From an uncultured Candidatus Rokubacteria bacterium (GTDB lineage Bacteria > Methylomirabilota > Methylomirabilia > Rokubacteriales > CSP1-6): DNA of 64,000 nt. Positions 18,872-28,715 of the stretch are shown here, in pieces. The number at the start of each line of letters is the position of its first letter. Position 1 is the first letter of the stretch. The notes beneath the pieces were generated by a model. That model made no database searches, was not told the DNA's origin, and saw only the letters and a list, made by a program, of their open reading frames with translations. Both the position numbers and the translations under genes were made by a program. The DNA is taken from contig CAVYTA010000007.1 of the NCBI GenBank assembly GCA_963771355.1, positions 480,001-544,000 on the forward strand. The letters run 5' to 3'.

Positions 18872-19528
18872 CTACCGCAGCGCGTGCGCGAAGGCGAGAT
18901 ACCGGAAGCTGACTTCCTCGGCGTATCGGTCCTGCGGCCGGTTCTCGGTGGCCTTGTCGGGGTTCCGGTTGTACGCGCGGAGCGCGGTGGCGTTGAAGCC
19001 ATAGCGCTGGATTTGCCAGCGTAGGTAGGTCGTCCCCACCCGGATATTGAACTTGGGATCCGCCAGCGATCCCAGCGACGCGTAGGTCCCGTTCTTCCCC
19101 ATCTCCGGCGGCGTGTACGGAAGTCCCATCCGCTTCACCACCAGCTCGGCGGTGGACGGCATGATCTGCATGAGCCCGACCTCGCCCGACTTGCCGATGG
19201 CGTCGGGCTTGAAGCCGCTCTCCTTGTCGGCGATGGCGAGGACGATGCGGAAGTCGAGGTCCGAGGCCTGGGTGATCTCGAGCAAGGTGTGCGGGAAGCC
19301 CGCGAAGTCACGGATGGTGGCCTGAGGATTCCGCTCCACGATCAGCGCGATGATCCGCTGCTCCAGCTCCACCCGCCCCTGATCGACCCGTTCCTGGGCG
19401 AGCCGTCCCTGCGTGATGCCACCCGCGTAGAACAACGGTACGGCGGCGATCAAGAGCACGAGCGCGATGACCTGAAGCCACGCGCTGCGACGCTCGACGA
19501 ACCGTCGGGCGATTGCCGTTGCCTGCAT
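18872..19528 (-). CDS. Lytic transglycosylase (SLT domain) with N-terminal TM
   Basis: AIADKESGF, GLMQIMP, NIRVGTTYL and ALRAYN. RBS GGAGG. Confidence 0.88.
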   Translation of the reverse strand: MQATAIARRFVERRSAWLQVIALVLLIAAVPLFYAGGITQGRLAQERVDQGRVELEQRIIALIVERNPQATIRDFAGFPHTLLEITQASDLDFRIVLAIADKESGFKPDAIGKSGEVGLMQIMPSTAELVVKRMGLPYTPPEMGKNGTYASLGSLADPKFNIRVGTTYLRWQIQRYGFNATALRAYNRNPDKATENRPQDRYAEEVSFRYLAFAHALR

Positions 19529-19602
19529 GGTCTTGGTTCCTCCGGATTGAATTTCGTTCATCTTTCGTGCGCGATGCTGCGGCGTTGACGAGCAGTAAAG
19601 GG

Positions 19603-19617
19603 GCAAGCGGTGTGCCA
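19603..19617 (-). promoter_or_regulatory. sigma54 promoter for the SLT gene
   Basis: Minus strand reads TGGCACACCGCTTGC. Confidence 0.78.
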
Positions 19618-19764
19618 TGGAGACGCCCCGCGGGAAGGCTGCGACTACAGCGACATGACACCGCGCAAGTTGTTCATGCTTCAAGGTTGTCAGATCCGCC
19701 GACACCCCGGACGGGGCCCGGGGACCTTTCGGGGCGCTCCCACGAGGGAGAGGGCCTCCGCCGG

Positions 19765-19790
19765 GGGGGCCCTCATTTTCGAGGGCCCCC
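19765..19790. repeat. GC-rich palindrome (REP-like)
   Basis: GGGGGCCCTC-ATTTTC-GAGGGCCCCC; a related copy is at 63561-63581. Confidence 0.55.
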
Positions 19791-19866
19791 TCTCAGACCG
19801 CGGGAACCCCATCGCCGACGAAAGAATTGCAGCCAACAATTTCAGCTACTTGACGGTCATTTTCGC

Positions 19867-19882
19867 TGGCAGCGACCTTGCT
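19867..19882 (+). promoter_or_regulatory. sigma54 promoter for the FecR-domain gene
   Basis: TGGCAGCGACCTTGCT, with IHF-like TTTCAGCTACTTG at 19840-19852. Confidence 0.72.
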
Positions 19883-19927
19883 ATTCAGGTGGTCAAGATG
19901 TCGTCATCCCTGAAGGAGGACCACCTG

Positions 19928-21258
19928 ATGCGTGCCCACTCCTCGAGATTCGCGGCCGCGCTGCTCGCGCTGGCACTCGGCCCTACTTCTGTATTTGCTC
20001 AGACTCCCGACGCGGTCGGGGTCGTGACCACGCTGTCCGGCCACGCCACCGTGGCCCGGGTCGGCCTGACCGAGCCCGCCTCGATGCGGTTCCGCGATCC
20101 TGTCTTCACCCGGGACCGCATCAGCACCGGCGAGAAGTCCATTGTCCGGGTGTTGCTGGGCGGCAAGGCCGTGGTGACCGCGCGCGAGCTCTCCGTCCTC
20201 ACCATCAATGAGGAGCCCCTCCGCTCCACGGTCATCCTCGGCTCGGGGAAAGTGGGCGCGAGCGTGCTCAAGGACCGCATGAAGTCCGGCGAGACCATCG
20301 AGTTCCGGACACCCAATGCGGTGGCGGTGGTGCGGGGCACGGTCCTGGTGGTGGAAGTGACCGAAGGTCCGGTCCCGGCCAGCGGCGGCCCGGCACCGGT
20401 CACCACGACGGTGTCCGTGATTCACGGCGCGGTGGACGTCTTCGCCCTCAAGGGGGGAACGATGACGCCCGTGCGCGTGGGCAGTCAGGAAAGCGTGCGC
20501 GTGACGGAGGGCCGACTGGGCACACTGCAGACGCTCACGCCTCCGGAGTCGCGTGCCCTCACCGCGGACCTCGAAGTGGCCCCGGACCGGCAGCACCAGA
20601 CCAAGAGTGTCCCCCAGGACGTCCGGCGGGCGATCGGCGCGCGTGAGCAGGCCAAGGCGGCGGCGCTCGTCGGCGCTCTCGCTCCGGCGGCGGGGACAAG
20701 CGGTGCGACACGGGCCGACACCTCCGCGCTCACCGCGGACGCGGTGAAGGGCGTGACCGGCACGCTGGACGGCGAGGTCGGGTCCGTGGACAACGTGCTC
20801 CTCGAGGCCAGCCGCCCCGTGCTCGAACTCGGCGGCAAGGTCGTCGGCACGGTGGGCACCGTGGTCACCGCGACCACCGACACCGTGCTCGGGCAGGGCA
20901 CCGTCGGCACCGTGAGTGGCTCGAGCGGCAACACCGTAGGGGGCGTCGTGACTGGTATCAGTACCTCGGTAGGCGGGAGCCTCACAGGCGGCAGTCTTAC
21001 GGGCAGTAGTCTCAAGGGCAGCAGTCTCACCGGCAGCAGTCTCACGGGCACCAGCCTCACTGGCAGCAGTCTCACCTGGCAGCAGTCTCACGCGGCAGCA
21101 GTCTCACCGGCACCAGCCTCACCGGCACCAGTCCCACCAGTGGCGGTGGCGTCACCAGCACCGGCGGCGGGACCAGCCTTTTGGGTGGCGTCACGGGCAC
21201 TGTGACCGGAGTGGTGGGCCCCGTCACCGGCGCGGTGGGCGGGCTGCTGCGACGCTGA
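19928..21258 (+). CDS. Secreted FecR-domain protein with a Gly/Ser/Thr pentapeptide-repeat tail; two +1 frameshifts in the repeat (stop at 21205 as read, 21258 if restored)
   Basis: RBS AAGGAGG, signal peptide and FecR motif DRISTG...TPNAVAVVRGT. The GSSLT repeat continues in the shifted frame to ...GAVGGLLRR*. Confidence 0.75.
20972..21138 (+). repeat. 11 x 15-bp coding tandem repeat (GGCAGCAGTCTCACC; GSSLT)
   Basis: Counted directly. Units 7 and 8 are 16 bp long (extra bases at about 21077 and 21093). Confidence 0.9.
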
Positions 21259-21289
21259 GCTCCCTTTTTCTCCGCGCTACAATGATAGG

Positions 21290-22084
21290 GTGAAGGTCTC
21301 GCTTCTCGCGCTGGGGATGTCCCTGCTCGTCTCCACCGCCGCCCTGCCGGCCAGCGCGCAAAAGCGCGTGCCGGCGAGCGGCACCGCGCCGGCGGCGCGG
21401 CCCCAGGGCCCGGTGCGCCCACGTGAGACCGACACTGCGCGGCTTGAGCGCCTGGCCGCCGAGGTGGTTCGTACCACGCGGGAGTACCGGGCAAGCCTGG
21501 AGCGAATGCTCGTCATCTACCAGGGCGAGGCCGAGAGTCTCGCCGAGCTCGTCGAGGTCCGGCGCGATCTCCACCAGCGCGAGATCGTCTCCAAGCACGA
21601 GCTCGAGATCGCGGAACGCTTGCTCGCCGAGGCGCAGGCCAAGGTGACGGAGACCGAGCGCTGGATGCAGGACGCCGACAAGATCATCGGCGAGGCCACG
21701 GTGCACAGCGAGATCGCCAAGCTGCCACCGCTGCCCTCGGGCGGTTATCTCGCCACCAGCGTCTTCATTCGCTTCAACGGCTCCGCGCCCTTCTCGCTCG
21801 CCGAGGTGCCCCGCCTGGAGCGCTTCTTCGCGGGCCGTTTCGGACGCCCGCTGCCCATCAGCGCGCTCGGCCAGAGCCAGGCGCACGACCGCATCGGCTT
21901 CGACCATCGCAATGCGGTGGACGTCGCGGTGCATCCTGACAGCCCGGAGGGCCTGGCGCTGATGGGCTATCTCCAGGGCCAGAGCATCCCGTTCGTGGCC
22001 GTGCGCCAGGCGGTGCCCGGCTCGGCCACCGGCGCCCATATCCACATCGGCCAGCCGTCGCGGAGAATCGCCGGTCGACCCTGA
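21290..22084 (+). CDS. Secreted coiled-coil protein with a putative C-terminal Zn-peptidase-like domain
   Basis: Signal peptide, long helical region, DHRNAVD and SATGAHIHIG. Confidence 0.7.
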   Translation: MKVSLLALGMSLLVSTAALPASAQKRVPASGTAPAARPQGPVRPRETDTARLERLAAEVVRTTREYRASLERMLVIYQGEAESLAELVEVRRDLHQREIVSKHELEIAERLLAEAQAKVTETERWMQDADKIIGEATVHSEIAKLPPLPSGGYLATSVFIRFNGSAPFSLAEVPRLERFFAGRFGRPLPISALGQSQAHDRIGFDHRNAVDVAVHPDSPEGLALMGYLQGQSIPFVAVRQAVPGSATGAHIHIGQPSRRIAGRP

Positions 22085-22135: not shown

Positions 22136-23539
22136 GTGGACGCCGCCGACTCTACCCGCACGATTCGTCCTGCCATCCTGGTGGTCGACGACGACCCCGG
22201 CCTCCGGGAGTCGTTCCGCCTGATCCTCGAGGACGAGTACGAGGTCCTCGACGTGCCGGACGGCGCGCAGGCTCTGGACATCGTCCGCTCCTACCAGGTG
22301 GATCTGGTGCTCCTCGACATCCGCCTGCCCGGCATGGACGGGCTCGAGGTCCTGGAGCGCATCAAGGCCCTCGACGAGCAGCTCGACGTGATCCTGGTCA
22401 CCGCGATCAAGACCGTCCGCACCGCGGTGTCGGCCATGAAGCTGGGCGCGCTCGACTACCTCACCAAGCCCTTCGACGAGGAGGAGGTGCTGGCCGTCAT
22501 CCGTCGGGCTCTCGAGAAGCGCGCCCTTGAGCGCGAGGTGGTCTTCCTGCGCTCCGAGCTGGCCCGCCGGGAAGACCTCTACGAGATGATCGGGCAGTCC
22601 GCCGAGATGCGGCGGCTCCACGGGCTGGTGGCCCAGGTGGCGCGCACTACCGCCACCGTGCTCATCACGGGGGAGAGCGGCACCGGCAAGGAGCTTCTCG
22701 CCCGCGCCGTTCACCGGCAGGGACCTCGCCGGGACCGGCCCTTCGTGGCGGTGAATCCGGCCGCCATCGCCGAGTCCCTCATGGAGACCGAGCTCTTCGG
22801 CCATGAGCGCGGCGCGTTCACGGGCGCGTACCAGCGCAAGCTCGGACGCTTCGAGCAGGCGCAGGGCGGCACGCTTTTCCTGGACGAGATCGGCGCGCTC
22901 CGCCCGGAGATGCAGGCCAAGCTCCTCCGCGTGCTCCAGGAACGGGAGATCGAGCGCGTGGGCGGTACCCACACCGTCAAGCTGGATCTGCGAATCATTG
23001 CGGCCACCAATACCGATCTCAAGCAGGCGGTGGCGGTCCAGACCTTCCGGGAGGACCTTTACTACCGCCTCAACGTCGTGCAGATCACCATGCCGTCCCT
23101 GCGTGACCGTCGGGACGACATCGGCGCGCTCGCCGACCACTTCGTCCGCCGCTATCGCCAGCAGTTCGGCAAGCCGATCGTGGGGGTGGCGCCCGACGCC
23201 CTGGAGACGCTGTCCGACTACTCCTGGCCGGGCAATGTGCGCGAGCTCCAGAACGTCATCGAGCGCTGCGTGGCCCTCGCGGAGGGTCCCCTCATCCGTC
23301 TCTCCGACCTGCCGCTGGAGTTCATGATCCCCGACGCGCGCAGCCGCGCGGACGCGGCCGGCAGTCTGGACCTCGAGGAAGCCCACGAGCAGTTCGAGCG
23401 GCAGATCGTCCGGCGCGTGCTGGACCGCGTGGACTGGAACCAGAGTGAGGCGGCCCGTCTCCTCGGTCTCCATCGCAACACGCTCAAGGTGAAGATGGCG
23501 CGCTGGAACCTCAAGCGGAGCGCGCCGGACTCGCGCTGA
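22136..23539 (+). CDS. sigma54-dependent response regulator (NtrC family: REC, AAA+, Fis HTH)
   Basis: GESGTGKE, ELFGHERGAFTGA, LFLDEIG, WPGNVREL and NQSEAARLLGLHRNTL. RBS GGAGG. Confidence 0.95.
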   Translation: MDAADSTRTIRPAILVVDDDPGLRESFRLILEDEYEVLDVPDGAQALDIVRSYQVDLVLLDIRLPGMDGLEVLERIKALDEQLDVILVTAIKTVRTAVSAMKLGALDYLTKPFDEEEVLAVIRRALEKRALEREVVFLRSELARREDLYEMIGQSAEMRRLHGLVAQVARTTATVLITGESGTGKELLARAVHRQGPRRDRPFVAVNPAAIAESLMETELFGHERGAFTGAYQRKLGRFEQAQGGTLFLDEIGALRPEMQAKLLRVLQEREIERVGGTHTVKLDLRIIAATNTDLKQAVAVQTFREDLYYRLNVVQITMPSLRDRRDDIGALADHFVRRYRQQFGKPIVGVAPDALETLSDYSWPGNVRELQNVIERCVALAEGPLIRLSDLPLEFMIPDARSRADAAGSLDLEEAHEQFERQIVRRVLDRVDWNQSEAARLLGLHRNTLKVKMARWNLKRSAPDSR

Positions 23540-23744
23540 GCCTGCCCTGAGGGCCTCCGATGCACTGTCGGCAGGGCACGAGTTCTAAGCGCGCGTCGGA
23601 GTTGGAGAATTCGGATCGAGATCCGCCGTTTCCCACGGAGCTGCCCTGCGCGTGGGGCAGCGCGTCATGCAAGCTTCGGGTTCATGACGGTGAAATTCTC
23701 TGACGCCATGGCCACTTGGCGCGCAGGCGCGCCGCGCATATTCG

Positions 23745-23760
23745 TGGCGCTCGATTTGCT
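23745..23760 (+). promoter_or_regulatory. sigma54 promoter upstream of the peptide ORF and SBP-kinase operon
   Basis: TGGCGCTCGATTTGCT (GG-N10-GC, with TTGCT). Confidence 0.72.
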
Positions 23761-23834
23761 CTATCCTCCCGCGCAGGCGGGCGCCTCATGGTGAGGTCCT
23801 CCCCGCCCAAACCTTTTGCTTGGGGGGAAGACCA

Positions 23835-23972
23835 ATGGTCAGGCTCGTTGCGATGCTAGCGATGCTCGCGTCCTTTCTGCTGGTGGGACCAGTGATCGAG
23901 TCGGGCACGTCGGAGTCCACGCAGATCTTCCAGGCCATCGGCACCGCGGACGGAAGCGGCGGGGGGGATTAG
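23835..23972 (+). CDS. 45-aa putative secreted peptide precursor MVRLVAMLAMLASFLLVGPVIESGTSESTQIFQAIGTADGSGGGD
   Basis: RBS-like GGGGGGAAG. The N-terminus is signal-like (Arg plus a hydrophobic core) and the C-terminus is polar. It lies between a sigma54 promoter and a hairpin. Not in the ORF track. Confidence 0.6.
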   Translation: MVRLVAMLAMLASFLLVGPVIESGTSESTQIFQAIGTADGSGGGD

Positions 23973-24029
23973 GACACGCGGTATCGCTCCGATGCAGGCT
24001 GGGATGGAGCCCGCTGCCCGGTCGGGACG

Positions 24030-24058
24030 AAGGGGGGCTTCGGCCCCCCTTTGCTCTT
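24030..24058 (+). terminator. Perfect hairpin with a cUUCGg tetraloop; attenuator or terminator-like
   Basis: AAGGGGGGC-TTCG-GCCCCCCTT followed by TGCTCTT. Confidence 0.55.
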
Positions 24059-25652
24059 CGCCGGCTTCGTGCTCGCGGCCGCGCTCCTGGTATGCGGTCA
24101 GCTCGCTCCCGCGACGGGGCAGGAGCGCCCGCCGGGCTCGCCCACGCTGTCCGCGGTCTACCGTCGACCGCTGGGCAACGATCCCGGCACGCTCGATCCG
24201 CCGCGCATCAGCGACACGTATGGCCGCTCGGTGGCGGAGCAGATCTTCGACGGCCTGGTTCAGTTCGATCAGACTCTCACCGTCAGCCCGGCGCTGGCCC
24301 GCTTCTGGAAAGCCTCGCGCGACGGCCTCACCTGGACCTTCAACCTTCGGCAGGGCGTGCGCTTCCATCACGGTCGGGAGCTCACCTCGGAGGACGTGGT
24401 CTACTCCCTCACCCGGCTCCTCGATCCGCGCCTCCGATCGGGCGCGGCCGAGCAATTCGCCGTGATCCGCGGCGCGCGAGAGTTCCGGGAGGGCAAGGTG
24501 AGCCGGGTGGAAGGCCTCCGCGCGATCGACCGCTATACCGTGGAGGTCTCGCTCACCGAGGCCTTCACGCCCTTCGTCTCCGTCCTCGCGGTCGGCCACG
24601 CGAAGATCGTTCCCAAGGAGCTGGCGGAGGCGCAGGGGGAGGCCTTCGGCACGCAGCCCGTCGGCACCGGACCCTACAAGTTCTCGCACTGGGAACGGGG
24701 AAAAGAGATCGCGCTCGTCGCCAACGGGGACTACTTCGGGGGCGCGCCCCAGCTCGCGCGCGTGCTCTATCGGATCTTCCCGGGGGAATCCAGCGATCAG
24801 ATCTGTCGGGAGTTCGAGCAGGGCAACCTCGAGGAGAGCCCGGTGCCCCCGGTCTGCCGGGGCAAGGTGGGCGACTCTCGCTACCTTCACGTGCAGCGCC
24901 CCACCTTCAGCGTGCGGTTTTACGGCTTCAACACGCGCTTCAAGCCGCTCAGCGACGAGCGGATCCGGATGGCCATCACGCATGCGCTGGACCGGGAACG
25001 GATCCTCCAGGAGATCTTCGCGGGCCGGTTTCAGGCCGCCCGTAGCATCCTCCCCCCGGGGATGCCGGGCCACAATCCGAGCATCAAGACCCCGCCGCAC
25101 GACCTGGCGCGGGCGCGGGCGCTGCTCCGCGCGGCGGGGTATCCCGAGGGCAAGGGGATTCCCGTCATCCCGATCTGGTCGAGCGTGAGGAGCCCGCGGA
25201 TCGAGAGCGAGCTCGCCGCGATCAAGACGCAGCTCCACGCGATCGGCATCCACGCGGAAACCAACTTCGAGACCGACTGGCCAGTCTTCTCGAAGCGCCT
25301 GGTCGAAGGTCGGCTGCCCATGTTCCTCTATGCGTGGCACGCGGAGCTGCCCGATCCGGACAGCTTCCTGTTTCAGCTCTTCCACTCGAAGAGCCCGCGT
25401 AACCCCACCGGGTATGCCAATCCCGTGGTGGACGCGCTGCTCGTCCAGGCCCGCCGGGAAAAAGACATCCTGCGCCGGAAGGAGATCTACCAGCGGGCGG
25501 AGCCTCTGATCCTCGAAGATGCCCCGGTGATCCCGGTGTGGCACTACGCCTACGAGCGGCTCTTCCAGGGATATGTCCGCAACGTCGAGGTCAGCGGGCT
25601 CGGCGAGGCCTATATCCCCCTCCGCAAGATCTGGCTGGAGGACCGTCGGTGA
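24051..25652 (+). CDS. Family 5 (OppA/DppA-like) extracellular solute-binding protein with no permease; start uncertain
   Basis: TLDP, IFDGLV, PALA..W..S.DGLTWTFNLRQGVRFHHG, PVGTGPY and WHAELPDPD. Confidence 0.9.
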   Translation: MLFAGFVLAAALLVCGQLAPATGQERPPGSPTLSAVYRRPLGNDPGTLDPPRISDTYGRSVAEQIFDGLVQFDQTLTVSPALARFWKASRDGLTWTFNLRQGVRFHHGRELTSEDVVYSLTRLLDPRLRSGAAEQFAVIRGAREFREGKVSRVEGLRAIDRYTVEVSLTEAFTPFVSVLAVGHAKIVPKELAEAQGEAFGTQPVGTGPYKFSHWERGKEIALVANGDYFGGAPQLARVLYRIFPGESSDQICREFEQGNLEESPVPPVCRGKVGDSRYLHVQRPTFSVRFYGFNTRFKPLSDERIRMAITHALDRERILQEIFAGRFQAARSILPPGMPGHNPSIKTPPHDLARARALLRAAGYPEGKGIPVIPIWSSVRSPRIESELAAIKTQLHAIGIHAETNFETDWPVFSKRLVEGRLPMFLYAWHAELPDPDSFLFQLFHSKSPRNPTGYANPVVDALLVQARREKDILRRKEIYQRAEPLILEDAPVIPVWHYAYERLFQGYVRNVEVSGLGEAYIPLRKIWLEDRR

Positions 25653-27565
25653 TCGGGGGCCGCGTCCATCGCCGCCTCGGCCTCCGCCTGGGCTCGCTCC
25701 AGGCGCGCTTCCTGTTGGGCTCCGTCCTGATCTTCCTGGTGGTGATGACGGGAGTGCTCGCGGTGGTGGAGTACGGGCAGCGCGCGGCCATCATCGAAGA
25801 AGTGCTGCGCCGGGGAGAAGTGATCACGCGCGATCTGGCCGCCATCTCGTCCCCGTCGCTCCTGCTCTACAGCTTCACCGATCTCGAGCAAAATGTGGAC
25901 CGGGTGCGGGCCAATGCGGACGTGGTGTACGCCATCATCGTGGACGCCGAGGGCAAGGTGGCGGCCCACAGCGGGCGTCCGGAGCTGGTGGGCCGGGTGC
26001 TCTCGGCGCCGCTGGACCGGCGCGCGGTGGCCACCGACGTGCTCCTCGTGCAGGAGACGCTGCGGCAGAGCCGCCACGACGGCGTGTATGACTTCGCCGT
26101 CCCGGTGCTGGTGGGCGCGCAGCGCTGGGGGACCGCCCGGGTCGGGTTGTCCAAGCGGCGCATGGAGGACCAGATCTTCCGGACCCGTCTGGAGCTGGCC
26201 GGGCTCACGGTGATCACGCTCCTCGTCGGCGGCCTCGCCGCCGCCCTGGTGGCTCGCCGCATCGCGCGCCCGGTGCGCGAGCTGGCCGCCGGCGCGGAGG
26301 CCATCGCGCGCGGGGAACTGGACCAGCGCATCGCGCCCACCGGACTCGGCGAGATCGGCCAGCTCGCGCTGGCCTTCAATCACATGGCCGCGCAGCTCCT
26401 CCAGCAGCGGAACGATCTCGAGGCCACCCACGCCGAGGTCCGGGTCCGCTTTCAGGAAGTCGCGGACCTCAAGCGCTATACCGACAGTATCCTGTCCTCG
26501 ATCACCAGCGGCATCGTGACCCTGGATCTGGACGGACGCGTGGCCACGATGAATCCCGCCGCCGAGATCCTCACCGGGCTCTTCGCCGAGGAGATCACGG
26601 GGCGCTACTGCGCGGAGGTCTTCGCCCACACCCCGGAAGTGGCGGAGATCCTCATGGAAACCCTGTCCAGCCGGTCGGGTACCGCCAACGTCTCGCTCAC
26701 CCTGCGCCGACTCAACGGCACCACCGTGCCGGTCGAGATGGGGACCGCCCCTCTTCGGCGGCTGGAGGGCAAGGACCTGGGCGTGGTGGGCGTGTTCCGC
26801 GACGTCAGCCAGGTCCGCGAGCTGGAGGGACAGCTCCGGCGCTCCGACCGGCTCGCCGCACTGGGCACGCTGGCCGCCGGCCTCGCGCACGAGATCAAGA
26901 ACCCGCTCGCCTCCCTGCGCACCTTCACCCGCATCATCCCGCGCAAGTTCGAGGACCCGCGCTTCCGCGAGACCTTCATGCGCGTGGTGCCGCACGAGCT
27001 GGAGCGGATCAACGGCATCGTGGAGCAGCTCCTCGAGCTCGCCCGGCCCAGCCGGCTCCGCCCGGCTCCCACCGCGATCCCGGTGCTGCTCGACCGGGTG
27101 CTCGAGCTGTACGCCAACGAGCTCGACACCAAGCAGGTGGTGGTGGTGCGCGAGTACGCGCGCGACCTGCCCACCCTCGGCGCGGACCAGGACCGCCTCT
27201 ACGAGGCGTTCGTCAACCTCGTGAGCAATGCGCTGGAGGCGATGGAAACGGGCGGACGGCTCACCGTCCGCACCGGCTGGCACCGCGGCGCCGAGGCGGA
27301 GGCGGGCGGCACGGGCCGGCGACGGATGCGCGTCGAGATCGAGGATTCGGGCAGCGGCATCTCTCCCTCGGAGGCCGACAAAGTGTTCGATCCGTTCTTC
27401 ACGACCAAGGCGGCGGGGACCGGTCTCGGGCTTGCGCTGACCCACAAGATCATCGAGGACCACGGCGGCAGCATCAGCTTCCGCAGTGCTCCCGGCGTGG
27501 GCACCACGTTCACGGTGGTGCTGCCCATGGTCGCGGAGCGGCCGTCGGGAGAGCGCGATGCCTAA
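25649..27565 (+). CDS. Membrane sensor histidine kinase (periplasmic sensor, HAMP, PAS, HisKA, HATPase; NtrB/AtoS-like)
   Basis: GTGA overlap with the SBP stop, 2 TM, HAMP, PAS (MNPAAE), AHEIKNPL and FFTTKAAGTGLGL. Confidence 0.92.
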   Translation: MIGGRVHRRLGLRLGSLQARFLLGSVLIFLVVMTGVLAVVEYGQRAAIIEEVLRRGEVITRDLAAISSPSLLLYSFTDLEQNVDRVRANADVVYAIIVDAEGKVAAHSGRPELVGRVLSAPLDRRAVATDVLLVQETLRQSRHDGVYDFAVPVLVGAQRWGTARVGLSKRRMEDQIFRTRLELAGLTVITLLVGGLAAALVARRIARPVRELAAGAEAIARGELDQRIAPTGLGEIGQLALAFNHMAAQLLQQRNDLEATHAEVRVRFQEVADLKRYTDSILSSITSGIVTLDLDGRVATMNPAAEILTGLFAEEITGRYCAEVFAHTPEVAEILMETLSSRSGTANVSLTLRRLNGTTVPVEMGTAPLRRLEGKDLGVVGVFRDVSQVRELEGQLRRSDRLAALGTLAAGLAHEIKNPLASLRTFTRIIPRKFEDPRFRETFMRVVPHELERINGIVEQLLELARPSRLRPAPTAIPVLLDRVLELYANELDTKQVVVVREYARDLPTLGADQDRLYEAFVNLVSNALEAMETGGRLTVRTGWHRGAEAEAGGTGRRRMRVEIEDSGSGISPSEADKVFDPFFTTKAAGTGLGLALTHKIIEDHGGSISFRSAPGVGTTFTVVLPMVAERPSGERDA

Positions 27566-28715
27566 GCCGGCCATCGCGGACCCGCAGGTCGAGCGGCGCA
27601 TCGCGCGCTCCGAGGTGATCAGCAAGGTCGCGGGGGGCGTGGTTCACAACTTCAACAACATCCTCTCGGTGCTGCTCGGCCGCGTGGAGCTGATGCTGGG
27701 CCAGGTGGATGGCGGCCGGCTGGACCCCACCCAGCTCCGCAAGGGGCTCGTGTCGATCCAGAAGGCGGCGCTGGATGCCGCCGAGCTGCTGACGCGCCTG
27801 CGCGATCTCGCCCGGCCTCCCCAGGACGTGCCCTTCTCCACCTTCGACCTCAACGCCGCCGTGGCCGAGGCCATCGACTTCATCCAGCCTCACCTCATGA
27901 CGGTGGCGCAGGGTATGGGGATCACGGTACGGCTCACGCCGCGACTGGCGCCCCCGCCGGTGCTGGTGTCCGGGCAGTCCAGCGCCCTGCGCGAGGTGCT
28001 GGTGAACCTGATCCTCAACGCCATCGAGGCCATGCCCGAGGGCGGCGATGTGGGCATCGAGACGCGGCGCGACGGCCCGTGGGTGAAGCTCCAGGTGTCG
28101 GATACCGGGATCGGCATGACGGAGGAGGTCCGCGCCCAGGTCTTCAGGCCGTTCTTCACCACCAAGTCGGCCGGCTCCACCGGCCTGGGCCTTTCCTCGG
28201 CCAAGGACCTCATCACCGGACACGGGGGCACGATCTCGGTGGCGAGCACGCCGGGGCGGGGCTGCACGTTCACCATCGCGTTGCCGAGCGCGGAGAGCCG
28301 CCCGGGTCCCGTCGATGCCGCCGCGGAGCCGGCGCTGCCGCCGGGCCTCCGGGTGCTGGTGGTGGACGACCAGCGTGATTTTGGCGACATCCTGCGCGAG
28401 TTCCTCGGGGCCAAGGGCTGCTCGGTTGCCATCGTTCGAAGTGGCCGGGCCGCCCTCGAGGCCCTCGAGCGGCACCGGTTCGACCTCGTGCTCACCGATC
28501 TGCTGCTGCCCGAGGTGAGCGGCTGGGAGATCGCCCGCGTGGCCAAGCGCCGGTCGCTCGGCATCCGCGTCATCCTCATGTCCGGCAATATCGTGGCCGA
28601 GGATCTCTGGAGCGCGGCCAGCGTGGACGCGTGCCTCATGAAGCCCATCGACCTCAACAAGCTCCTCGGCGTGATGGCCGAGGTGCTCGTCGGGGTCCCG
28701 CGCCGCGACGCCTGA
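27558..28715 (+). CDS. Cytoplasmic hybrid histidine kinase (HisKA, HATPase, REC) with no sensor domain
   Basis: VHNFNNIL, NLILNAIEAM, FFTTK..STGLGL and a C-terminal REC. Overlaps the upstream gene by 8 nt. Confidence 0.88.
   Translation: MPKPAIADPQVERRIARSEVISKVAGGVVHNFNNILSVLLGRVELMLGQVDGGRLDPTQLRKGLVSIQKAALDAAELLTRLRDLARPPQDVPFSTFDLNAAVAEAIDFIQPHLMTVAQGMGITVRLTPRLAPPPVLVSGQSSALREVLVNLILNAIEAMPEGGDVGIETRRDGPWVKLQVSDTGIGMTEEVRAQVFRPFFTTKSAGSTGLGLSSAKDLITGHGGTISVASTPGRGCTFTIALPSAESRPGPVDAAAEPALPPGLRVLVVDDQRDFGDILREFLGAKGCSVAIVRSGRAALEALERHRFDLVLTDLLLPEVSGWEIARVAKRRSLGIRVILMSGNIVAEDLWSAASVDACLMKPIDLNKLLGVMAEVLVGVPRRDA

Follow-up and report, generated by a model that had tools for sequence, protein, structure and literature searches.

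The DNA analysed here is a window of 64,000 nt from an uncultured Candidatus Rokubacteria bacterium (contig CAVYTA010000007.1), and all coordinates below are window positions. At 22136..28715 lies a locus, encoded throughout on the + strand, in which an earlier note had proposed a self-encoded peptide circuit with sigma54 output. The locus opens with the gene of an NtrC-type sigma54 activator (22136..23539), which shows the Pfam architecture REC-Sigma54_activat-HTH_8, with D61 as its phospho-accepting aspartate and the GAFTGA motif of the AAA+ domain at residues 226-231. Two enhancer-like palindromes of the form TGC[A/C]C-N8-G[T/G]GCA, identified by motif conservation, follow at 23561..23578 (distal, at -184) and 23642..23659 (proximal, at -103), and a sigma54 -24/-12 promoter, TGGCGCTCGATTTGCT, called from its sequence and conserved position, occupies 23745..23760. 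Next come a 45-aa open reading frame (ORF) with a ribosome-binding site (23835..23972), which ends in ADGSGGGD and was accepted on conservation and coding constraint, and a perfect 9-bp cUUCGg hairpin with a pyrimidine tail, evident in the sequence at 24030..24051. Comparison with relatives predicts that residues 39-45 of the small product, DGSGGGD (23949..23969), would form a mature peptide. The gene of a family-5 binding protein with the OppA/DppA fold (24051..25652; Pfam SBP_bac_5) has an uncertain start codon, and its TGA overlaps the GTG at 25649 of a membrane histidine kinase gene (25649..27565; Pfam sCache_3_2-HAMP-PAS-HisKA-HATPase), the end of which is overlapped by 8 nt by the start of a sensorless hybrid kinase gene (27558..28715; Pfam REC and HATPase). 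The activator, promoter, 45-aa ORF, hairpin, binding protein and two kinases listed in the earlier note were thus all found in place, and, as it had also held, the binding protein comes without a permease, no permease gene being seen downstream of the binding-protein and kinase genes at the locus. The nearest named relatives belong to Methylomirabilota/Rokubacteria, and all matches listed to the NCBIfam equivalogs AtoSC, NtrBC, ZraSR, DppA and OppA score below the curated cut-offs.

The activator, the enhancer and promoter, the 45-aa ORF, the family-5 binding protein and the sCache kinase form a unit that is conserved across Methylomirabilota. Among 251 Methylomirabilota genomes, a set that takes in the unpublished genomes G030 and G135, 124 contain a match to a profile of the 45-aa precursor, and a binding protein of the same clade (described below) is present in 122 among the matches listed, at about 48% identity or more, with 40 weaker matches below that level left out. 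Among the matches listed, peptide and clade binding protein occur together in 112 genomes and neither occurs in 117; because relatives among the genomes are not independent, these co-inheritance counts are descriptions and not tests. Where loci of the 22 discordant genomes were fetched, contig ends, frameshifts or divergent peptides accounted for the discordance, except in G069, for which no such explanation was found. In the fetched genome loci the binding protein is present in 101 of 106, the kinase directly follows it in 84 of the 87 with downstream DNA (exceptions L134, L225 and L228), and the activator lies upstream in 81 of the 84 with enough DNA (exceptions L114, L134 and L228). Only 5 of 70 loci, all of the window's genus, hold an orthologue of the hybrid kinase (at least 60%). 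The hybrid kinase is therefore a genus-level accessory: as a core component it was rejected, and the membership in the circuit that the earlier note had given it was dropped. No description of the unit was found in the literature searched, subscription papers being largely outside reach. We conclude that the unit is real, phylum-wide and undescribed. Departures from the standard layout were also seen: tandem pairs of clade binding proteins precede one kinase at L188, L189, L306 and L309, suggesting two ligand specificities, and a clade binding protein stands without activator or peptide at L228, L325 and L360, with a Cache-HAMP-PAS protein next in the first two.

The small ORF is a real gene under purifying selection. 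Among 3321 pairs drawn from 82 loci, 96% had a lower proportion of nonsynonymous (pN) than of synonymous differences (pS), and third codon positions are the most variable. Its product, 40-48 aa long in the Methylomirabilota family and so within the 10-100 aa size range of RRNPP propeptides, consists of a basic N-terminus, a hydrophobic stretch, P-x-x-E, a spacer, an invariant G36-x-A38 and an acidic Gly-rich tail. Residues E22, G36 and A38 are invariant across all 82 loci and P19, L15 and F32 nearly so, and the hydrophobic stretch is freely substituted. No known family was found for the precursor in Pfam or NCBIfam, and the ESM Atlas returned unnamed clusters only; a profile built from 46 copies recovered 1538 protein clusters. 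Tails measure 4-10 aa, with 62 distinct ones among 100 copies, and begin with D or E in 70 and with C in 23; those of genus g35 (L115, L121, L125, L127, L128, L131, L185 and L187) have Cys as their first residue and Trp as their last, so that disulfide dimers would be possible. At 12 loci the precursor gene forms a tandem array in which it recurs roughly every 215 nt, to give 2-5 copies, the tails being identical within 11 of the 12 arrays, and one long-read array contains three frameshifted copies. Two other accounts of the ORF were rejected. A non-coding RNA is disfavoured by the codon-position pattern and by pN<pS, and an Rfam scan gave no match beyond one chance hit (E=0.77). Read-through fusion of peptide and binding protein is not indicated either, since the ORF stop, which is in frame with the binding protein in the window, falls in all three frames among relatives. 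Contigs from RNA libraries of two studies span the ORF at a depth of about 3-4, such contigs being unable to show transcription or its level.

A second precursor family, of 37-41 aa and with the same layout, was found in 19 of 80 further loci, which were chosen from cluster representatives with binding proteins 41-47% identical. It comprises 352 clusters, and its assignment to Candidatus Tectomicrobia is based on just two named binding-protein matches (87% and 69%). In these precursors A-Y-A comes before a tail that is short, acidic and Gly-rich, and A-x-A, present in 112 of 117 database homologues, occupies the place of the invariant G36-x-A38 of the window's family; the profiles of the two families align weakly (probability 82%). 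P-x-x-E is absent from the Tectomicrobia precursor, which has A-x-A and the acidic tail all the same, and the adjoining kinase is of the same type. The signal-peptidase rule calls for small residues at -3 and -1, and the precursor is likely to be cut after Ala38, a cut that would free a short acidic Gly-rich peptide. The comparative evidence points to the C-terminal tail as ligand, while the low complexity of the tails makes strain-specific pherotypes doubtful. At the Tectomicrobia loci L340 and L363, the binding proteins bear a lipobox-like Cys, and a long hairpin-bearing leader lies between promoter and precursor.

Conservation extends to the control region. When homologous binding protein-kinase pairs were surveyed, the check suggested in the earlier note, they proved to carry a conserved ORF of the signal-peptide type with a -24/-12 promoter ahead of it. 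Of 80 loci, 65 have the strict promoter pattern at a distance of 75-113 nt upstream of the ORF, against a background of 0.7% per 200 nt, and 13 more have a relaxed form. Perfect enhancer palindromes are present in 30 of 65 loci versus a background of 0.3%, the motif having been derived from the same 65 loci in which it was counted. In held-out loci, with at most one mismatch allowed, the palindrome was recovered in all 11 Tectomicrobia loci whose upstream DNA is complete and in 11 of 12 loci of family f7, and the activators beside these palindromes carry the same HRNTL helix. With a phospho-accepting Asp in REC, GAFTGA, a Fis-type helix-turn-helix (HTH), a -24/-12 promoter and upstream palindromes all found, the activator has the traits of a group-I sigma54 enhancer-binding protein.

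In the window's own genome, 4 of 1525 promoter-like sites stand out, with scores of about 30 versus 16 for the next. They are the promoter of the unit, that of a 289-aa gene which we take to be hot-dog-fold dehydratase-like (G000:C6:2499584, -), that of its decayed duplicate (C6:1626178, +) and that of a Fis-like gene; the dehydratase-like gene and its duplicate, which lies among kinase genes, share the -184/-103 geometry. The Fis-like gene (G000:C5:768622; L232:5653-5925) encodes a stand-alone HTH protein of 82-126 aa behind a sigma54 promoter and two palindromes, and is conserved across the family (L238, L239, L242, L243, L247, L252, L254, L255, L258, L279 and L280), including genomes in which a search for the unit found none. 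In genomes of this kind motif and promoter also stand ahead of single receivers, and in 4 of 5 of them tested the best match to the activator is a DegP-adjacent paralogue with the same HRN[T/S]L helix. Because the motif is common to genomes with only this paralogue, the adjacent activator is not the sole candidate binder, and the four top promoters cannot be assigned to it over the paralogue. The paralogue (57%, same recognition helix) follows a DegP-like protease at G000:C6:1755288-1756667 (L234) and at L285-L288, and mostly precedes another binding protein, with no kinase seen beside it. In relatives, many enhancer-promoter matches precede large proteins with signal-like N-termini, presumably NHL-, YD-repeat- and DUF2235-like; nine such loci, where the large proteins are mostly signal-bearing, are L236, L253, L257, L262, L264, L273, L277, L281 and L282, and they may mark a secreted-protein regulon. 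In family f4 (L265-L270 and L284), divergent sigma54 promoters with shared palindromes face a ferredoxin gene and one for a signal-bearing protein of about 400 aa, and at G000:C6:2110384 (L233) one enhancer-like palindrome precedes a minor pilin-pilMNOPQ operon near a PilS/PilR-like pair and pilA.

The window's binding protein matches SBP_bac_5 (PF00496) with E=1e-83, and its predicted structure, at a mean predicted local distance difference test (pLDDT) value of 91.8, superimposes on DppA/OppA peptide-complex structures with template-modelling (TM) scores of 0.88-0.90. Its W429-H-A-E432 aligns to DppA W433-T-G-D436, and conservation of the pocket W and D reaches 90% or more among 68 sequences, the window's protein having E432. 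We take DppA D436 to bind the amino terminus of the peptide and R383 its carboxyl terminus; around R383 the alignment is gapped. The W-x-x-D/E pocket is kept in all three branches of the kinase-associated binding proteins and also in paralogues linked to ATP-binding cassette (ABC) transporters, so it is evidence for peptide-binding capacity and not for specificity. The kinase-associated proteins form one clade, apart from the ABC-linked ones, in a quick tree of 67 rows (Shimodaira-Hasegawa-like approximate likelihood ratio test support of 100). Paralogues at about 40% identity were rejected as members of the unit, being ABC-linked or kinase-free in 14 fetched loci, where no kinase unit or peptide was found. 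There is no in-frame ATG for the window's gene, which starts at the TTG at 24051 or at another weak start codon; an assembly frameshift hiding an ATG is not supported, since contigs of three sequencing runs show none, one run possibly being the source of this DNA.

A family-5 protein could also be a sensor of nutrient peptides or feed a distant Opp/Dpp permease, the small protein then being an unrelated output of the promoter. The genome does hold dozens of such proteins (68 tblastn matches), an Opp-type permease is encoded elsewhere in the window, and DppA serves transport and chemotaxis alike (PMC8050422). Against this stand the separation of the clade from its ABC-linked paralogues, the kinase that comes next at nearly every locus (84 of 87) and the presence of an acidic-Gly carrier beside all three branches of the clade, and we consider this account very unlikely.

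That carrier differs in the third branch of the clade. No small ORF was found at its loci, and a secreted subtilase is encoded upstream in 17 of 22; as for the others, L309 has two subtilases downstream, three loci have less than 250 nt upstream, and L297 has none. The subtilases are often near-copies and reduce to 7 distinct types. All seven have an insert in the loop after the oxyanion Asn that bears acidic-Gly motifs, mostly repeated (about nine GMAGE-type units, five SEGGE units, AAEGGE, DDGGGD and ESGG-D/A), and no such insert was present in five unrelated subtilases, two of Poribacteria and three of the window's own genome, the latter being about 28-30% identical to the loop-bearing type. 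The kinases of all three branches contain sCache_3_2 and HAMP. Two unrelated carriers that share only the acidic-Gly motif beside one receptor clade are the strongest argument for that motif as the ligand, an argument from the association of low-complexity sequence, with few control proteins. Repeats of this kind, often between two Cys, were seen in the subtilases of L299-L304, L306-L309, L319, L321, L323, L334, L336-L338 and L361, which adjoin one or two clade binding proteins, an sCache kinase and a receiver-kinase hybrid. The Tectomicrobia precursor family, the subtilase-linked third branch and the retention in the binding protein of the acidic residue of DppA are new here.

These carriers bear on a further explanation, in which the 45-aa product would remain uncleaved in the inner membrane and modulate the kinase as MgrB does, with the binding protein sensing an external ligand. 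In size and layout the small gene resembles that of MgrB, which has 47 aa, belongs to its own regulon and acts as a feedback inhibitor (PMC8404706); the invariant E22 and near-invariant P19 sit at the membrane edge, and G-x-A is far from the hydrophobic stretch. However, the Tectomicrobia precursor, whose neighbour is a kinase of the same type, retains A-x-A and the acidic tail but has no P-x-x-E, soluble subtilases next to this clade of binding proteins show the motif again, and the hydrophobic stretch is freely substituted, so that we regard an uncleaved modulator as quite improbable.

The hairpin after the ORF was also compared among relatives. In most members of the window's family it lies inside the stretch that codes for the signal peptide of the binding protein, and a clear stem with a T-run is found in its place at L025, L340 and L363. 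Two-sided changes were counted in 7 of 15 hairpin pairs across 16 hand-picked loci, a count confounded by the coding overlap. The hairpin is likely to act as a leaky terminator or as a stabiliser that raises the ratio of peptide to receptor, and would let peptide output exceed receptor output.

In the mechanism we favour, the 45-aa precursor would be exported and then cleaved, whether by signal peptidase I or by another protease, on the C-terminal side of A38 to give the acidic Gly-rich tail. The tail would pass the outer membrane and be captured by the transporter-less binding protein, which would present it to the adjacent kinase; the kinase would then phosphorylate D61 of the adjacent activator, which would drive the same sigma54 promoter at 23745, presumably with positive sign. 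We give a probability of roughly 0.55 to the proposal that the cleaved tail is the ligand, that the loop is self-amplifying and that the tail is a diffusible autoinducer. What the sequences show are the gene order, the co-occurrence, the coding constraint, the conservation of promoter and enhancer, and the clade and fold of the binding protein. The loop of the earlier note, with its ligand narrowed to the tail and without the hybrid kinase, is the best explanation of the locus.

Several findings weigh against this mechanism. The tails are of low complexity, with a DGG or EGG start in 45 of 82, as are the acidic-Gly loops, for which the control set is five proteins. G-x-A lies about 17 residues beyond the hydrophobic stretch in the Methylomirabilota precursors, which is long for signal peptidase I, and the unit holds no protease gene. 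The N-terminal block L15, P19, E22 and F32 is conserved as strongly as the cut site, which fits a membrane-tethered role. Some loci depart from the expected pairing: L228 and also L325 have the clade binding protein with neither activator nor peptide, L297 has a kinase with neither peptide nor subtilase within 5 kb upstream, and no peptide was found within 1 kb at L324. Furthermore, the loop-bearing subtilase was not found in the 251 Methylomirabilota genomes (E<=1e-40), and the enhancer motif also precedes the Fis-like gene in genomes that have the DegP-adjacent paralogue and in which no unit was found.

Some of this evidence would also suit a tail that never leaves the periplasm and serves the cell as a readout of its own export, protease activity or confinement, perhaps damping the loop instead of amplifying it. 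The tails are low-complexity and broadly shared, the third-branch motif sits inside a secreted protease, and the kinase H-box has E-x-x-N, which is associated with phosphatase activity. In the ChiS system, the kinase activity is inhibited by liganded CBP (PMC12704726), so the sign of the feedback cannot be assumed. The tandem amplification of the precursor and the hairpin after the ORF speak against this reading, as they suggest high output relative to receptor. DGSGGGD, moreover, has a mass of about 560 Da by hand calculation, and the porin size limit is near 600 Da, so that the tails are small enough for porins. On balance we judge confinement of the tail to the cell unlikely. Taking the autoinducer proposal further, the family-5 clade may represent the receptor of an undescribed class of diderm peptide quorum sensing, in which the signal would come from the tail of a Phr-like micro-precursor multiplied in tandem arrays or from loop repeats of a secreted subtilase that sets its own pheromone free, sigma54 and Fis-like output would control large secreted proteins, and the common chemistry of the tails would let cross-talk reach across phyla; we put this wider picture forward as tentative, with the odds somewhat against it.

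Directly upstream of the activator, at 21290-22084 (+), is the gene of a 264-aa signal-bearing protein without a Pfam match, which has this position in the genus and in G248 and has a paralogue (65%) at C7:229274-230050. It is preceded at 19724-21500 (+) by a gene for a FecR-domain protein with Ser/Gly/Thr-rich pentapeptide repeats and an apparent frame shift near 21090-21205, and a lytic transglycosylase gene (18872-19705) is divergent from the latter.

Among described systems, Rap-Phr, RRNPP(A) and AimP of Bacillota are closest to the candidate precursor. Their small Sec-type propeptides likewise combine a basic and a hydrophobic region with a signal at the C-terminus, which proteases set free (PMC10075063, PMC11343458). 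Signals of 4-10 C-terminal residues are typical of RRNPP propeptides (PMC10075063), and pheromone duplications occur in these systems (PMC10075063, PMC11343458). Unlike RRNPP(A), the unit has no adjacent 250-500-aa tetratricopeptide repeat (TPR) receptor, no TPR match having been obtained; its neighbours are the activator and an SBP_bac_5 protein, and its hosts are diderm. With a periplasmic binding protein and a membrane kinase as neighbours, reading of the signal would take place outside the cytoplasm. A single peptide among 19 from Tectomicrobia gives a marginal match to the AimP model (E=0.009), which is a weak lead only.

In its receptor half the unit resembles AioX-AioS, LuxP-LuxQ, CBP-ChiS and TorT-TorS, where a dedicated binding protein is encoded beside the kinase with no adjoining permease. 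The adjacent regulator is a sigma54 activator, as is LuxO, and AioR is one as well. CBP belongs to the SBP_bac_5 family, and the sensor of AioS is sCache-like (PMC8050422). The ligands of those pairs, unlike the one proposed here, are arsenite, autoinducer-2 (AI-2), chitin oligosaccharides and trimethylamine N-oxide (TMAO), none of them a peptide encoded in the same unit, and no kinase entry in the available part of the review PMC8050422 has a peptide ligand. DppA-Tap chemotaxis likewise employs a family-5 peptide-binding protein, DppA, that stimulates a membrane receptor (PMC8050422), but there DppA also supplies a transporter, its partner in signalling is a chemoreceptor, and what it binds are nutrients.

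A self-encoded peptide and a membrane kinase are also the elements of Agr, ComCDE and ComQXPA, which exert positive feedback on their own genes (PMC8895600). In those systems, unlike here, the peptide binds the kinase directly and dedicated genes serve its export or modification; the present unit has a family-5 protein, a HisKA/sCache kinase and sigma54, and neither a processing or export gene, a modifying enzyme nor a LytTR- or NarL-type regulator was found in the locus. Regulators of the Agr/ComCDE type are non-sigma54. The unit shares with MgrB-PhoQ a single-helix protein of about 45 aa expressed within the system, which MgrB regulates (PMC8404706), whereas MgrB depends on its membrane segment and is not paired with a binding protein; the MgrB models of NCBIfam and Pfam gave no match among 70 peptides.

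The hosts of the unit are two abundant uncultured soil lineages of diderm phyla, Methylomirabilota and Candidatus Tectomicrobia, and the 61-92 natural tail variants per lineage could offer ready specificity pairs for synthetic biology. If true, the carriage of a pheromone within the loop of a protease would represent a novel mode of signal encoding. In reviews, peptides are the autoinducers of Gram-positive bacteria and small molecules those of Gram-negative ones (PMC8895600, PMC10075063). This split would, if the proposal is confirmed, be broken by a self-encoded peptide that is found phylum-wide and is sensed through a periplasmic binding protein and a sigma54 two-component pair.

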